The notes: a model not told the origin generated them from the sequence alone. 64,000 nucleotides of DNA from Dictyostelium discoideum (GCA_000004695.1 CM000154.2:832001-896000), one strand, 5' to 3'; numbered from the stretch's first letter, positions 43,204 to 52,600 are shown. Made by a program: numbers and translations.

Positions 43204-44358
43204 ATGTTGAAGTCAAAAATATCATTTATTTCAAGATGTACCTATAAAATAATAGAAGCCCAAAAATTTGAGGCCCAATATCTAACGAAAATAAAACCAT
43301 CAAACCAAAATATAAATCCTAGGAAATCAAAATTTTTGAAATTTTTTAAAGACCAGCCCAAAATTACAAATAATACAAATAAAACAAAAACAAAAGCAAA
43401 AGCAAATGCAAAAGCAACACCATCAGAAACTACAGAAGCAACAACAAAAGAAAAAAATAAAGTTATGACATTTCTTGGTAAACCATTTGAATTCAACAGA
43501 TCTAGATATATTGAAATATCTAAAGAAAATCAAATTCAATTATTTTTTAGAGCATTAAAACATTGTGGTGGTTCATCGATTTCAGATATTTATAAAATTT
43601 CCTATAGAGAATTTACAAATTCACCAGAAGGTCAATCTATATTTTATTTTTTTGGTGGATCAATGGTTAGAATGTGTTATACATTATTTCCAGATTTCGA
43701 ATGGGCACCATGGTTATTTAAAAAGAATAGTGATTTATCAAAAATGAGAAGAGAAAAAGATTATGATTATAGTAGAGAAATTAAATGGTTCGCTGCAAAA
43801 CACAATATCAAAGATTCAAATTTAGATGACTGGTATAAAATGAAATTAACCGACCTTTTAAAGGAATGCAAGATACGAAATCTCTTTAGTATTGGTTTGG
43901 TAGATTTCATTCGAAAAGCGTACCCACATCATAAATTTTATTTATTTAAATTCCATAAAATTATATTGTGGTGGAAGTATCCAGACGGACTTGACGATTT
44001 CCGTCAATATTTACTCAAAGAAACACAATTCACTTCAATGGAACAATTTTATTTATTGTCAAAAACAAAATTCACTTCTTTGGGAGGTACCTCGCTTCTT
44101 TTATACTACAAATATGATTTACACCAAATCTATAGCATATTATTTCCAGATTATCCTTGGAATAAAGAATTACTAACACCAGAGGCCTTTCAACAACTTA
44201 CAAATCCAAAGTTTGAAAAAATAGAACCAATTTCCAAAAATTTCGATTTTCCAAAATTTAAAAAGAAAAAATCAAAATTTAAATATGAAACTTTTGCTCC
44301 GACTCAAATAGAAACTCAACAAGAATTACTCAATAAAATTAATGAAAATCTTAAATAA
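43204..44358 (+). CDS. hypothetical protein with an internally duplicated ~50-aa module and a basic N-terminus (possible organellar targeting)
   Basis: 384-aa single ORF. Modules SISDIYKISYREFTNSPEGQSIFYFFGGSMVRMCYTLFPDFEWAPW and TSMEQFYLLSKTKFTSLGGTSLLLYYKYDLHQIYSILFPDYPWNKELL share the pattern F..(L)GG(S/T)...Y..(L)FPD(F/Y).W. Confidence 0.55.
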   Translation: MLKSKISFISRCTYKIIEAQKFEAQYLTKIKPSNQNINPRKSKFLKFFKDQPKITNNTNKTKTKAKANAKATPSETTEATTKEKNKVMTFLGKPFEFNRSRYIEISKENQIQLFFRALKHCGGSSISDIYKISYREFTNSPEGQSIFYFFGGSMVRMCYTLFPDFEWAPWLFKKNSDLSKMRREKDYDYSREIKWFAAKHNIKDSNLDDWYKMKLTDLLKECKIRNLFSIGLVDFIRKAYPHHKFYLFKFHKIILWWKYPDGLDDFRQYLLKETQFTSMEQFYLLSKTKFTSLGGTSLLLYYKYDLHQIYSILFPDYPWNKELLTPEAFQQLTNPKFEKIEPISKNFDFPKFKKKKSKFKYETFAPTQIETQQELLNKINENLK

Positions 44359-44626
44359 CATATATCTTTTTTTTTTTTACAACTTTTTTTTTTATTTATT
44401 TTATTTTTATTTTTAGTTCACTTTATTCTTTTTATTGTGTCTTTCAATTATATTAATTTCATCACCATTATCGTTATTATTATTATCCATATTATCTATA
44501 TTATCCATATTATTATTATTATTATTATTATTATTTGTATTATCATTATTATTATCATCTGTATCAACAAATTCATTTGGTGATTGATCTTCAGATTCAC
44601 TAAAAATAATAATTAAAATAAAAAGG

Positions 44627-45241
44627 TTAGGAAAAAAAAGAAGTATTAGAAATTAGAAATGATGTAGAAAAGTTAAATACATACTTTTGTAACTGTTGTC
44701 TTTTTGTTACTCTTTTTACTGAAGTTTGTGTGGTTGGTGTTGGTGTTTGTGGTGGTGTTGGTGTTTGTGTTTGAGTAGGGGGTGTTGGTGTAATTAATTT
44801 TAAGGAAATTCTTAATTTTTCTCTTTGAGAGTCTGTATGTTGAGGGCATTTCAAAGTTTTTGTACACATTTTACCTGTATTGTTTGAAACAACACCACAA
44901 ATTCTACTTAAAAGTGATTGAATCTTTTCAAAAGATAGTGATTTAACAGCATCCAATGAATATGCTTTTGATTTGGTTTTTCTTTTCGATTTTGATTTTT
45001 TATTTGATGGATCATAATCATCATCTGAATCTTCCTCATTTTCAGAATTGATTGACCCACCACTAATATTTGTATTATTGTTATTGTTATTTACACCATT
45101 GGTATTGGTATTATTACCATTACCATTTATATTGTTTGTACTATTTGATCCATTATTAATATTAATATTGTTATTATTATTATTATTAGTTGGAGATTTA
45201 TTTATAATATTATTATTATTATTATTGTTATTAGTATTATT

Positions 45242-45280
<39 letters not shown>

Positions 45281-48200
45281 TCCATTAACATTGTTTAGTA
45301 ATGCTTTATTTTGTTTTCTTGCACTTCTAATAGTTCTACCAACACCCATACATTTCTCTAAATGTGGTGCATAACGTGATGAAATTACACTTCCATTACA
45401 TTTAATACACTCAAAAGTATCGGTTTGATTCTTTGTTAATTGACCAAATATATCCAAACCAGGTTTCTTTATAATTTCTGGTGGGGGTGAATAATCTTCA
45501 TCATTCAATAAACCAAGTTGAATATTTTTATGAACTTCAAAAACAATCTCTAATAACTCTTCCTCAAATAAATCTCTATAAATTTCATTAGCCATTTCAT
45601 CTTCAAATGTTTTATTTTCAACATCTGATAAATCTGGTTCCTCTTCTTCTTCTTCTTCTCCACCTCCTCTTCCTTCCTCTTCCATTATTTGATCTTGTTG
45701 CGGTTGTTGAGTTGGTGGTCGTGTTTGTGTTTGTTGTTTTTGCTGTTGATTTGGTGAAGAAGATGAAGATGATGAATTGGTAGTTTTTGTTGTTGTGTTT
45801 GTTGTTGTTGATTCTATTGTTGTTGGTATTGATGTTGATGTTGATGTTTGGGCACTTGTATCTTTTTCTGTTTCAGTTTGAAAAGTTGAAGCAGTAGTAT
45901 CATTTGGTTCACTCATAACAACATCTTCAACAGTCGATTGCACTATTTCTTTCTTATCTTTTTTACCATTTGATCTTGTTTTTTTAGTTGGTACCATTGG
46001 TTCTGGCGGTATTTTATCCTTTGATTTCTCTTTTTCTAATTTTTCTAATTTTTCTTTCTCTTTTTCCAATTTTTCTTGTTTCTCTTTTTCTAATCTTTCT
46101 TTTTCAGCTTGTTTCGCAGCTTGTTTCTCTTTTTCTGCTTGGGCTTTTGTTAATTTCTTTGCAACTGGTGGAGTGATTGCTGATTTTGGTTTTGTTGGTG
46201 CTGAAGTGGTTGTTGTCGTTGTTGTTGTTGATGAATTTGCAGCAGCGGCTGCAGCAGCAGATGATTTTGATCTTGATGATGGTGGTGGTGGTTGTTTTGC
46301 TTGTGATGCTTTTGAAATTTTGGCAACTGGTTGATGAATTTTAGATTTTGATTTCTTTGTACTTCCCAATGGTCTACCTCTACCAGTTGGTTTGGGTTTT
46401 TCATTACTACTACTAGCATTATCATCAGTATTTGTATCATCAGTTTCAATTTCTTCCTCATCAGATCCTGAACCTGATGTTGATCCTGTTTCTCCAGATG
46501 TATATTCATCACTTTCATCATCCCAATAACTATCACTTTCATCATAACTATAACTATCAGAATCTTCAGAATCTTCAGAATCATAATCAACAGTTTTTGT
46601 TTTTTTCTTATTATTATTATTATTATTGTTATTATTATTATTATTATTTATTTTTGATGATGATAATGATGCACTTGATTTCTTTGGTATTATTTTCTTT
46701 ATTGTTGTTGTTATATCTTTATCCTTATTACTACCAATACTGTCTTTATTGCTACTATTTACATTTTTTTTTAAATTTGAATTGGTAGTTGTTGATGAGA
46801 TACTGCTTGAAACCTTACCTCCACTGGACAAGGATGAAGAAGATTTTGATATTATATTTTTGGGTTTATCTTTTTCTTTGTCTTTATCTTTATCTTTTTC
46901 TTTTTCTTTTTCTTTATCCTTTTCCTTTTCCTTTTCTTTGTCTCTATCTTTATCTTTTTCTTTTTCTTTTTCTTTATCTTTATCTTTATCTCTTTCTTTA
47001 TCTCTTTCTTTCTCTCTATCTTTTTCTCTATCTCTATCTCTATCTCTATCCCTGTCACGGTCTCTTTCTCTATCTCTGTCTCTGTCGCGGTCTCTATCTC
47101 TGTCTCTGTCTCTATCTCGATCTCTGTCCCTGTCTCTATCTCGATCTCTATCTCTTTCTTTATCCTTTTCAGATAGTTTATAGTCTTTATAATCTTTGTA
47201 GTCTTTATAGTCTCTATCTCTGTCACGATCTCTATCTCTGTCTCTATCACGATCCCTATCACGGTCTCTATCTCTGTCTCTATCTCTATCGATTGATTTG
47301 TAATCTCTATCTTTTTCTTTGTAATCTCTATCTTTTTCTTTGTAATCTCTATCTTTATAATCTCTATCTTTATAATCCCTATCTTTATAATCTTTATCAG
47401 ATTTACCACTGACACCAATTGAAGAAGATGATTTTTTAATTAAGGAGGAGGTTGGTATACTTGATGATGAAGTTGAAACGTTTGATGTTGAAAGGATTGG
47501 ACTTGACCTTTCAGATTTACTCTCTGAACTAGTTGGTGAAGATAGATTTTTTGTATTACTACCACTATTAATTGATGAGGATGATGATGATATATTTGAA
47601 ACTGCGCTTGTATTTGAACTACTTGATGATAATTTATTTCTATCTTTACCTCTATCCCTATCTCTATCTCTTTCCCTTGATCTTGAACGATCTCTATCAC
47701 GATCCCTCGAACGATCTCTTGAGCGATCTCTTGATCTTGAACGATCCCTATCTCTCCTACGGTCTCTATCACGATCACGATCACGATCTCTATCCCTATC
47801 TAATCCACCACTACTTCCACCACTTCTACCTATATCTCTTTCTCTATCTCTATCTCTATCACGATCCCTATCACGATCCCTATCCCTATCCCTATAATAA
47901 CGATCACGATCTCTTGACCTTGATCTTGATCTATCTCTTACCCTATCACGTATTCTATCCCTTGATCTATCTCTATCACGTATTCTATCTCTACTTCTAT
48001 CACGTGATCTATCTCTATCTCTCATATATTTATCATCTTTTCCGCCGCCACCACCACCACCACCACCACCACCACTCTTTGATTTATCTTTTCCATCAGC
48101 ACCAATACCAATAATACCTGATGGTGGTGATTTATTTATATTATCGCTATTACTACCACCTCCAATTGAAGGTAAAAATGAAGGTAAAAATGAAGAAGTT

Positions 48201-48841
48201 GAAGAAGGACTTGTTTGCAATATCGGTGTTGTTGATGTTGATGATGATTTTTCAAGTTCTCTACTTGATTTTAATGAAGTTGAAGTTGAGGTTGATGATG
48301 TTGGAATTGATGTCGATGATGTTGAAATTGATGATTGTGATGTGGATAATGGTGATTTTAAAGGTTTTAAAGAAGATGAAGATGATTTACCATCTCTAAA
48401 TTTATCCCTATCTTTTCTATCTCTTGATCTATCTCTTGATCTATCTCTACTTCTATCACGTGCTCTATCTCTTGAACGATCTCTCGCTCTATCTCTTGAT
48501 CTATCTCTACTTCTATCACGTGATCTGTCTCTACTATCCCTAGATGATGATAAACTTGTTATATTGGATTTATTATTTTCTTTTAGTTGATCTTTTTTTA
48601 AAGAGGAAGAGAAAGAAGAGGAAGAAATTTGAAATGATGATGTATTATCTTTTGACCTGTTTAATGCATGTTGTTGTGATACAAAGGTTTGTGGTGAATT
48701 TGATGATGATGATGATGATGACGTTGGTGGAGGTGGTGGTGGAGGTGGAGGTGGAGGTGGGGGTGAATTACTACTATAACCACTACTACCACTATTATTA
48801 TTATTATTATTATTATTAGGATATGTCGGATCAAATGACAT
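44627..48841 (-). CDS. ataxin-7 / Sgf73-like protein (SAGA DUB-module subunit) with an enormous low-complexity RD/RS/KE-repeat N-terminal region
   Basis: The C-terminal third contains FECIKCNGSVISSRYAPHLEKCMGVGR (Sgf73/ATXN7-type zinc finger; compare ...SRFAPHLEKCLGMGR) and RICGVVSNNTGKMCTKTLKCPQHTDSQREKLRISL (SCA7 domain consensus CGV...G..C.RSL.CK.HS...R). Upstream is about 900 aa of (RDRS)n, (DYKDR)n, (DRDR)n, (KEKD)n, poly-S, poly-N, poly-P. A possible alternative terminal exon at 44599-44413 follows a GTATGT...tttttAG 85-bp intron (44684-44600). Confidence 0.7.
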
Positions 48842-49631: not shown

Positions 49632-52600
49632 TTATTCAGTAAATTCAAATGGTTCTGGAGTTGAAGGTTCTGGAAGAGTTGGAGAAGTTGTAGTGGTAGC
49701 ATTTGGAAGTGAAGCAGTAGCAGTAGCAGTACCAGATTGATTTCCAACAGTTTCTTGTTTAGTTTCTGGTTTTTCTTTTACAACCAATTGTTCTGGTTCA
49801 TTTGGAGTTAAATCTCTCAACATAACGATACCAATGGCAGGACTCTTTTTAATTGGTTGATAACGAGCATCATCAAATTGAACATATTGTAATTGTCTTG
49901 GTACGATACGAGCAGGATTTGATTTTCTTTCAAAGAGTGGTTCTTTTTCTTCGGCTTTGGCAGCTTCTTTTTCTTCCTTTTCTTTGGCTTCTTTTTCTTT
50001 GGCTTCTTTCTCCTCTTTTTCTTTCTTTTCAACATCTTGATCAATATTCATAGCGGAACGAGAACTTTGAAGTTTATTCTTTCTACTGTAGGAGAGGATG
50101 GCTGTTTCAATTTTATTGGTTGAGCTTGTGGTGGATGGTTTGGTTTCAGGTGGATAAGCAAAGAGTGATGGTCTGCAATTGGATTTGAAAGTGAAAACTG
50201 GCATTTCCAAGTTTTTGTTGAGACCAATGATAGAGGTTGGAGTTAACGCTAAGCCCATAAAGTGAGTCATTGGGAACCAATACCAAAATTGAAGGAAACC
50301 AGCAATACCAACGATAGCATTCATATTCTTGTGACCACTTGGTGAATGTAATTGAATGGTAGAGTTTCTACCACCGGCATCAATGACACCAAATGCTAAT
50401 ACAGCACCAAACTTGGACATTGAATCCTCACGTTTATCACTGATACAAGTGGCGAATAATTTTCTGGCGGTTTCAGCCTCTGGTACCAACTCTTTACTGG
50501 TTTGAATCAATACCATAGCCATGGAGATCCAAGCGGCTTGTTTAACGTAACCAACACTATCGGTGGTGAGTGATTTTAAAATTTCCAAAGCATCTCTTTG
50601 ACCGGTACCAGCACATGCAATACCCAAAGCGAAAGCGGCACCATAACGAACGTGTGGGTTATAACTTTCGGCCAACAAAGCGATTGCCTTTGGACATTTC
50701 TCTGGTTGTCTGGACAAAACGAAACCAATACAAGTGACGGCAGCTCTTCTAACAGAGTCGGTACCATCAGAGACGGCGACATGTAAGAGTTTTCTCAAGG
50801 CATCATTGTGACCAGTTCCACAGTAAGCAAAGGCAATTGCATACATACCACCATATCTAATCAATGGATCTTTGTCACCAATCATTTGCTCGATCAAGGT
50901 GTCGGCACTCTCCTCCTTGCCATACATTAAGAATGCCAAACCCATGGATAAGGATCTGATGGTTTTCTCATGTTGGGTCTCATGAGCATATGCCAACATC
51001 TCTTCGATGGCCTTCTTTGCGCCACTGCCCAACATCACCAAACCCATAGCCAAACCAGCGGCCTCACCAGAGACGGCGTCATCGTTATAGAGCACACTTT
51101 TCAAATCTTCATACAAATCATCACGACCTGTTGCCATTGCAGCCAAACCCAAACCCAAGGATGCACCATGATGAAGGATGGCATTGTTGATGTGTAACTT
51201 CTCCACTAAATAATCGATGATCTCCTCGCCATGTGAAGCATGAATTAAACCGAGAGCATAAAGAGAACCAGATTCAGAGTATGGAGTTTGATTGACACTA
51301 GCACCTGGCAAATAAGTCTTCAAGAGTGATTTGCTCTCTTTGATATGACCCTTGTTAATTACACCCAAACTTGAGATTGCGCTAAACTTTGTCCAATGAG
51401 TTGATTTGTATAACCATTCAATATTACTTCTTAAAAATGTATCTCTAGTTGTACCAGCATGCATCAATGCATTGGCAAATAATGTACCAGAATAAAAGAT
51501 GGCACCCTTATGTAATTCACTGGTGGTTTTCATTGATTGTAAAATGTGCATATCAGTACTACAATTACGATAAAGAAATTCTAAATTCATACCAATTGAT
51601 ACATCTCCAATTAAAATTGAATGTAATCTTTCTAAACGTTGTTCAAAGGATGATGATCCTCCACTCTTTTCATTACCACTATCTATATCAATTTCCATAC
51701 TATCTGATGCTGGTGTTGTTGTTGTTGTTGTTGTTGATTTCTTTTCAACTGGTGGTAATCTATTACGAACATTTAATAAAAATTGTTGTGTACTATTTTG
51801 AAAAAGATCAAATCCAATTTGATATGCAAGTAATAATGATTCCTAAAAAAATATAAAAAAAAATGGTGTTAATAACACAAACACACACACTCACTTTTTT
51901 TTTATTTTTTTATTTTAAAAAAGTTTACTTACTTCATCTTTTTTAATTAATGATAATAAAATTGTAGCAACTTCAATATGGTTATCTAAAAAGATTAAAC
52001 ATTGAACAACACTAAGATAATCTGGTTTTTCTTGGGCTAAATGAAGATTAACCAAAATACCTAAAACACTATGACGGAAATGACGATTGTTTACTGAAAC
52101 ATTACAAATGTGAAGACAATAAGAGAGCATACTATTTACATTACCAGATTGTGAAATTGCTTTTTCAATTATATCTAATCTTCTTGCTTCAATAGCAATA
52201 CCTAATGCCTGTTTATATGATCCTTCCCTTTTTTATTAAAAATATGTTAGAATTTTATTATTATTAAAAAAAAAAAAAATAAAAAAATACATACTTGAAA
52301 CATCTATCAAACATTCCCATTACAATTGATTCGAGATGTGGATTGATAACAGTGTCTTTATTTGTGGATGTTCTTAATTTAATATATTCATCAATAAATT
52401 TATCTAATTTTTCCAAAAAAAAAAAATAAAAAAAAAAAATAAAGTTAGTAAAATTTGATAATTTTTATGGATTATAAAAAAAAATAAATATAATCAATTA
52501 ATTTGAAAGTTACATAAAAGTGTTTCAATGTATTCACTCTTTGATAAAACATTAAATAAAGAACCAGCTGATAACGCATATTCCATTGAATTTGGGAAAT

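Follow-up and report, generated by a model that had tools for sequence, protein, structure and literature searches.

In the SAGA deubiquitinase module of yeast and human, ENY2/Sus1 clasps the helix of Sgf11/ATXN7L3, and the zinc finger packs beside the catalytic site of USP22/Ubp8, where its arginines contact the acidic patch of H2A–H2B. ATXN7L3 also contains an SCA7 domain, which is lacking in yeast Sgf11. Ataxin-7/Sgf73, another subunit of this module, resembles the protein described here in having a zinc finger and SCA7, and ataxin-7 is likewise enlarged by low-complexity sequence. The protein in question is encoded on the minus strand of a 64,000-nucleotide stretch of Dictyostelium discoideum DNA (GCA_000004695.1 CM000154.2:832001-896000), called the window below, whose first letter is position 1 of all coordinates given. 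A preliminary description, made from the DNA, placed there a giant Sgf73/ataxin-7 homologue in an open reading frame (ORF) at 44627..48841. It was right in recognizing a SAGA deubiquitinase-module protein with an SCA7-type domain and a huge charged extension, but the subunit is almost certainly ATXN7L3/Sgf11. The gene is a new architectural variant of this known family, with approximately 1,080 disordered residues ahead of the conserved helix.

The last approximately 370 residues hold all three ATXN7L3 modules in the canonical order: the long helix, the Sgf11-type zinc finger, and the SCA7 domain. The N-terminal long helix of Sgf11/ATXN7L3, FEDEMANEIYRDLFEEELLEIVFEVHKNIQLG, lies at residues 1079-1110 (45512..45607; this and all further features of the gene are on the minus strand) and is identified by ATXN7L3 alignment, an AlphaFold helix, and fold matches to yeast Sgf11; its EIYxDLxEExxLxxxFEVH aligns with ATXN7L3 proteins. 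The zinc finger, C-x2-C-x11-H-x3-C followed by a G-x-G-R...R tail, spans residues 1143-1176 (45314..45415) and is identified by Pfam (PF08209), alignment, and fold. An Asn-rich linker at residues 1183-1262 (45056..45295), encoded mostly by (AAT)n, leads from the zinc finger to the SCA7 zinc-binding domain of the ATXN7L3 type at residues 1303-1347 (44801..44935), which was found by phmmer against the Protein Data Bank (PDB) and by alignment with the Physarum orthologue; its C-x10-C-x5-C-x2-H motif is located at residue 1315. The signatures shared with ATXN7L3 occur in the same order, namely, the EIYxDLxEE..L...FEVH helix, the PGLDIFGQ linker, the zinc finger with G-x-G-R...R, an acidic and then basic stretch, and CGV(V/I)S..T.KMCT..L.CPQHTD. 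In alignments of seven and 17 sequences, C78, C81, H93, C97, G99, G101, R102, and R108 (alignment numbering) are invariant.

The single Pfam match on the full protein is the zinc finger of Sgf11 (PF08209, residues 1140-1169; E 8.3e-10; score 38.5 bits, cutoff 26.4; E 1.8e-10 in a second run). The preliminary description had spoken of a recognizable Sgf73 zinc finger, in whose place an Sgf11-type helix and zinc finger are found, and had let its identification stand or fall with a match to the SCA7 hidden Markov model. Formally, no such match was obtained: PF08313 does not hit the full-length protein, and with C-terminal fragments it scores 14-16 bits, below its gathering threshold of 23. The domain is nevertheless there in its ATXN7L3 form. 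The best hit of a phmmer search against all PDB sequences was the SCA7 domain of human ATXN7L3 (2kkt_A, E 6.6e-11), while the SCA7 domain of ataxin-7 (2kkr) reached E 0.23. The same search gave weak matches to Sgf11 in SAGA structures from yeast and Komagataella and no Sgf73 chain at E<=1, although the library included the Sgf73-containing entries 3m99, 3mhs, and 4fk5, whose Sgf11 chains were matched. When the C-terminal module with the Asn-rich linker removed was searched against 5.8 billion proteins, 33 hits were obtained with E-values down to 1e-35 and approximately 40% identity over 97% of the query (36-40% to vertebrate ATXN7L3), and every named one was ATXN7L3 or "SAGA-associated factor 11 homolog".

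The predicted fold agrees with this assignment. The AlphaFold model of residues 1068-1180 contains a 37-residue helix (model residues 5-41, predicted local distance difference test [pLDDT] approximately 82) and a beta-beta-alpha zinc finger (pLDDT 76-86). A fold search with this helix and zinc finger model placed Sgf11 at all of PDB ranks 1-7 (3mhh, 4fk5, and 4zux), with yeast Sgf11 aligned over its full length at a probability of 0.92-0.99, whereas an Sgf73 chain ranked 46th with a probability of 0.04. These fold matches have weak E-values (6e-3), since nothing in the free model fixes how helix and finger lie relative to each other, but the ranking is consistent. An Sgf73/ataxin-7 orthologue, that is, the SAGA anchor of the deubiquitinase module with a charged expansion akin to the polyglutamine (polyQ) of ataxin-7, would account for the C-x10-C-x5-C-x2-H motif of the SCA7 type and for the weak match to the ataxin-7 structure. 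This explanation is refuted and retains a negligible probability: Pfam assigns the zinc finger, which is of another type, to Sgf11; the SCA7 region fits ATXN7L3 better by approximately nine to ten orders of magnitude, its similarity to ataxin-7 being marginal; neither Sgf73 nor ataxin-7 occurs among the named homologues; the helix and PGLDIFGQ are ATXN7L3 signatures; and the fold ranking and the PDB search both leave Sgf73 far behind Sgf11. For the reconstruction of SAGA in Amoebozoa, the gene supplies the Sgf11/ATXN7L3 activator and not the Sgf73/ataxin-7 anchor, and the latter therefore remains to be located or shown absent.

The ATXN7L3/Sgf11 orthologue of D. discoideum differs from its described relatives in several respects. 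ATXN7L3 has about 300-350 amino acids, as compared with 1447 predicted here; the animal helix lies within the first approximately 20 residues, while here approximately 1,080 residues precede it; and an Asn-rich insertion of approximately 80 residues occupies the linker between the zinc finger and the SCA7 domain, whose Pfam score is sub-threshold. Across 1.84 billion cluster representatives, an exhaustive search with HMMER retrieved 525 relatives, the best 150 of which are 86-730 amino acids long; there were 117 hits at E<=1e-10, and the inspected ones share the ATXN7L3 architecture. No hit of this search exceeded 53% identity (51% at E<=1e-10) or 730 amino acids, and the libraries contained no dictyostelid orthologue. 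The median homologue length is 292 amino acids. Of the retrieved relatives, 181 possess the zinc-finger motif; its median starting position in them is residue 86 (90th percentile 151, maximum 265), as against residue 1145 here. A metagenome scan with the helix and zinc-finger peptide gave 65 pattern matches, none of them confirmed, and a literature search returned no relevant paper linking Dictyostelium to ATXN7L3, no mention of Dictyostelium among the Sgf11/Sgf73 papers listed, and no result for Dictyostelium with "SCA7 domain".

The closest available relative is the ATXN7L3 orthologue of Physarum polycephalum, likewise an amoebozoan (EukProt EP00026_P006845, P0038; 516 amino acids; E 6e-34). 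Its SCA7 core is near-identical, with 22 of 23 residues shared across CGVVSN.TGKMCTKTLKCPQHTD, and its helix is also preceded by a mixed-charge N-terminal extension (residues 1-165) that is 53% charged, the most charged in the homologue set. The Physarum extension is approximately six to seven times shorter and rich in E, R, G, and K, without RD/RS arrays, and the protein has no poly-N linker. Charged N-terminal extensions thus recur in the ATXN7L3/Sgf11 family outside animals. A metagenomic relative (P0061) has an RGG-rich extension.

The extension of the D. discoideum protein holds (RDRS)n, (DR)n, (KDRDY)n/(DYK)n, and (KE/KD)n arrays, which the preliminary description had reported together with nucleotide periods of 6, 12, and 15; both are borne out by the translation and by Tandem Repeats Finder (TRF). 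The arrays had been taken to make up the N-terminal approximately 900 amino acids; they in fact form three blocks between residues 101 and 660 and amount to approximately 355 residues. Array 1 (residues 101-148, 48398..48541) is (RDRS)n with 22 R, 13 D, and 8 S, a net charge of +11, and 12- and 60-nucleotide periods. Array 2 (residues 271-399, 47645..48031) consists of RDRS, RDRI, and (RD)n blocks with a short G/S spacer between them (58 R, 37 D, 15 S, net +21). Array 3 (residues 483-660, 46862..47395) is 92% charged with a net charge of +1, running from (KDRDY)n through (DR)13, (DYK)4, and (DR)22 with two E to a graded shift into (KE/KD)n. The three arrays contain approximately 120 arginines. 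TRF found periods of 6, 12, 15, 21, 30, and 60 nucleotides, with TCTCTA, TCTATC, and TTTTTC as units of period 6, TCTATCTCTTGA and TTTATCTTTTTC as units of period 12, and a 60-nucleotide unit with 92% matches; the unit of period 15, TCTTTATAATCTCTA, is the reverse complement, with rotation, of the 15-mer tataaagatagagat quoted in the preliminary description. Elsewhere in the 64-kb window, RD/RS arrays occur in none of the six frames.

Within array 3, (DR)n gives way by degrees, via EKDREKERDKERDK, to (KE/KD)n across residues 518-660 (46862..47290). The lysine array seems to have arisen from the arginine array by AGA-to-AAA (G-to-A) changes, because the same period-6 and period-30 TRF rows span the DR and KE/KD parts alike (46865..47290). 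A G-to-A change is in the direction expected under AT mutation pressure.

Sequences of this composition are known as arginine-rich mixed-charge domains, defined by Greig et al. as longer than 60 amino acids with a charged fraction >=0.7, a positive-to-negative ratio between 1:0.7 and 1:1.3, and arginine enrichment (bioRxiv 10.1101/771592). Residues 265-661 fall within this definition, with 397 amino acids, 152 positive (104 R and 48 K) and 126 negative residues (ratio 0.83), and at least 70% charged residues. The same study (bioRxiv 10.1101/771592) reported that repeats of RD alone go into nuclear speckles and form condensates in a manner dependent on repeat number, from RD30 upward; that lysine substitution abolishes speckle entry and condensation; that RS domains act as phospho-tunable versions; and that the natural domains of U1-70K, CPSF6, FIP1L1, and NELF-E are sufficient to target a protein to speckles. 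Like the mixed-charge domains of U1-70K, CPSF6, NELF-E, FIP1L1, and the fungal SPA-5, the arrays include near-pure (DR)n runs, here of 13 and 22 units, and the RDRS arrays resemble the phospho-tunable RS domains of SR proteins. Mixed-charge domains are purine-rich in their coding strand, according to PMC12629991, and the coding strand here is 71-80% purine. They differ in their host, as the arrays are joined to a chromatin-enzyme adaptor of an amoebozoan and not to an RNA-binding or RNA-processing protein. The preliminary description's view of the RS/RD arrays as a hallmark of splicing-factor-like phase-separating regions is supported at the level of composition, which fits the published definition, and at that level only. 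An SR splicing factor was considered and rejected, since RS dipeptides occur only inside RDRS/RSRS units and Pfam found neither an RRM nor another RNA-binding domain in the full protein. The extension is among the longest natural RD/RS mixed-charge regions on a chromatin enzyme.

The codons of the arrays are more diverse than those of the remaining gene. Arginine is encoded in the arrays by AGA (80), CGT (22), AGG (19), CGC (2), and CGA (2), that is, 36% non-AGA as compared with 18% in the rest of the gene, and aspartate by GAT (97) and GAC (20), with GAC at 17% as compared with 4%. In a register-free count over 223 array codons, 58 departures from AGA/GAT are synonymous and 11 change the amino acid, three of these being D to E, while only approximately 18% of single-base changes to AGA/GAT codons are expected to be synonymous. 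The longest perfect tracts in the RD/RS arrays are GATAGA repeated 4.3 times and a 12-mer repeated 2.8 times. The excess of synonymous over amino-acid departures, 58 to 11, marks the arrays as something other than fresh products of slippage, and the codon pattern indicates purifying selection on charge alternation in arrays that would be old and constrained. It also argues against a recent pure-repeat expansion of the RD arrays. An unstable expansion of the type seen in polyQ disease was accordingly rejected for the RD/RS arrays, which have no long uninterrupted tract and frequent synonymous interruptions; in this gene, a long uninterrupted nucleotide repeat is found only in the (AAT)12, (AAT)9, and (GGT)9 tracts. 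Such a pattern would indicate selection on charge alternation in a setting where coding repeats usually count as junk.

By analogy with yeast and human, the helix is predicted to be the ENY2/Sus1-binding element, around which ENY2/Sus1 would wrap, and the zinc finger would sit next to a USP22/Ubp8-type active site, activating the enzyme and contacting the nucleosome acidic patch. Assembly with and activation of a USP22/Ubp8-type deubiquitinase, alongside ENY2/Sus1, is the predicted role of the C-terminal module, through which histone H2B would be deubiquitinated during transcription. The extension may serve as a multivalent electrostatic handle, possibly tunable by phosphorylation, that would enrich the deubiquitinase module in nuclear condensates of the RNA-processing or speckle-like kind, or on nascent ribonucleoprotein, and so couple H2B deubiquitination with the processing and export of mRNA. 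Such a role would fit two observations from other systems: Drosophila Sgf11 binds Cbp80 and is required for mRNA export (PMC3510517), and a disordered region of TAF2 targets nuclear speckles. This handle role is put forward tentatively and at somewhat below an even chance. The joint reading, an ATXN7L3/Sgf11 orthologue with maintained arrays and a condensate-handle role, is favored with moderate confidence. A stronger version, in which a eumycetozoan adaptor has been fitted with a selected arginine-rich mixed-charge domain that would place H2B deubiquitination in speckle-like condensates, is considered clearly unlikely. If the handle role is true, the gene provides a simple and genetically tractable case of a disordered charge array steering a histone-modifying module to RNA-processing compartments; if not, it is an ordinary though extreme case of dictyostelid low-complexity inflation. 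Were the stronger version true, the gene would offer a natural near-pure (RD)n protein whose graded R-to-K passage is a built-in test of arginine versus lysine outside animals.

The most serious competitor of maintained arrays with a handle role is that the extension is mostly neutral baggage, produced by replication slippage in an AT-rich genome that inflated a tolerant disordered N-terminus, and several observations lean in its direction or otherwise weigh against a selected, condensate-directed extension. Homologues elsewhere function without such an extension, as their median length shows. Only the C-terminal module aligns with Physarum, the two extensions being alike in composition and not in sequence, with no alignable similarity between them. 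Units have been duplicated at the DNA level, including the 60-nucleotide unit and the 12-nucleotide GAT-CGT-TCA-AGA, so that the codon departures are not independent events, and the block limits were chosen from the amino-acid pattern; because of both, the nominal P of 1e-32 for the excess of synonymous departures is not literal. The conservation of the arrays is read from the codon patterns of one sequence. The repeat load of the organism also points this way, since D. discoideum coding repeats were found to be as variable as non-coding ones and judged largely non-functional (PMC3460934), and many of its homopolymers are single-codon and thought to be young, with positions rarely conserved in D. 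purpureum (PMC3188802); pure tracts of (AAT)n and (GGT)n as well as poly-P, all typical of such junk, occur in the gene itself. As to condensation, arrays 1 and 2 carry a net positive charge as long as their serines remain unphosphorylated, and array 3 is based on lysine over its last 50 residues, lysine-based domains having failed to condense in Greig et al. (bioRxiv 10.1101/771592). Neutral inflation is nevertheless judged rather unlikely. The alternation of R and D has been kept while the codons diverged, codon diversity is greater inside the arrays than outside, which is the opposite of single-codon young repeats (PMC3188802), and the longest perfect hexamer tract reaches only 4.3 units. 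RD/RS arrays are absent from all other frames of the window, and Physarum independently has a mixed-charge extension at the same position.

On a different explanation, the working subunit would be a canonical-size protein of approximately 395 amino acids starting at the internal Met1053, with the 1447-residue form as a minor or regulated isoform. Met1053 lies 26 residues before the conserved helix (45638..45688), where canonical homologues begin, and there are few Met residues upstream of it. Translation from this residue as the main form is judged very unlikely, since the 1052-codon frame upstream cannot last by chance at 24-38% GC, constraint on the amino acids of the arrays implies their translation, and the gene has no AT-rich promoter-like island upstream of this site, GC falling below 10% only downstream, at 45171..45290. 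A short isoform from Met1053 may exist, but it would not account for the maintained frame upstream.

The gene model itself was examined for its coding continuity. The ORF at 44627..48841 is real, as described previously, being uninterrupted on the minus strand over 1404 amino acids; its frame has one stop, the terminal one, in 1405 codons, while the remaining five frames have 36-274. Mononucleotide shuffles of the ORF DNA have a mean of 115 stops and a minimum of 84, and all 4.2 kb are therefore coding in one frame. The GC content is 24-38% across the gene, which is flanked by intergenic DNA of 6-14% GC, and the sole stretch below 10% within the gene, 45171..45290, encodes poly-N in the (AAT)n linker. 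A gene fusion or misassembly was rejected because the GC content stays at this level throughout, with no trough of the intergenic type except the stretch coding for poly-N. ORFs of 60-207 amino acids in other frames over the arrays (e.g., 46626..47183 on the plus strand, "LSLSLS...") were likewise set aside as by-products of the repeats, as only one frame is open across the 4.2 kb.

At its 3' end, the ORF reads ..QKYVFNFSTSFLISNTSFFS, and its last 20 codons (YVFNFSTSFLISNTSFFS), which open with GTATGT, are probably read-through into an intron. Exon 1 (44685..48841) would comprise codons 1-1385, the last one split by the intron, as supported by the ORF list, the stop counts, and the splice model; the ORF described earlier corresponds to exon 1 plus read-through as far as the stop at 44627. 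The predicted intron (44600..44684) is T-rich, 85 nucleotides long, and of phase 2, with GTATGT...TTTTTAG borders and a computed in-frame junction. A predicted exon 2 (44413..44599) would add an N/D-rich tail of 62 codons, counting the initial one that the intron splits, and end in TAA, so that the spliced gene would reach 44413 and encode a protein of 1447 amino acids. The base composition, the (AAT)n tracts, and the shortness and AT-richness of this intron fit a dictyostelid. No exact match to the 1447- or the 1404-amino acid protein was present in a collection of 15 billion proteins.

Outside the arrays, the first approximately 1,080 residues comprise Ser/Thr-rich sequence, runs of P13, G11, and N13, an acidic stretch, a GRGRP motif, and a K/E-rich stretch. 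The acidic stretch, rich in S, D, E, and Y, spans residues 751-802 (46436..46591) in the translation, with a net charge of approximately -20 over residues 745-806. The putative AT-hook-like motif KPKPTGRGRPLGSTKKSK, to which the GRGRP belongs, lies at residues 815-832 (46346..46399); it was seen in the translation and is significant in no hidden Markov model. The K/E-rich stretch at residues 895-943 (46013..46159) is predicted to be helical and has TRF periods of 24 and 30 nucleotides at 46024..46105. The AT-hook-like motif accordingly stands between the acidic stretch before it and the probable K/E-rich helix after it. Pfam on the whole protein reports nothing within the extension, and NCBIfam has no match for residues 661-1040 or for the C-terminal module.

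The purest nucleotide repeats of the gene are (AAT)12.3 at 45244..45280, (AAT)9.3 at 44508..44535, and (GGT)9.3 at 48048..48075, which encode poly-N and poly-G. Strain polymorphism at such repeat loci of Dictyostelium is documented (PMC3460934), and these pure (AAT)n/(GGT)n tracts, not the RD arrays, are predicted to be the likeliest sites of length variation between strains.

Two neighboring genes flank the locus. A convergent ORF of 384 amino acids without a Pfam match (43204..44358, plus strand) has its stop 54 bp from the predicted stop at 44413, and the two 3' untranslated regions therefore overlap or are extremely short. Upstream, the ORF at 49632..51698 (minus strand) represents the C-terminal exon of Rpn2/PSMD1, a regulatory subunit of the 26S proteasome (RPN2_C, E 1e-49; PC repeats); it begins mid-protein, and at least one further exon therefore lies past 51698.

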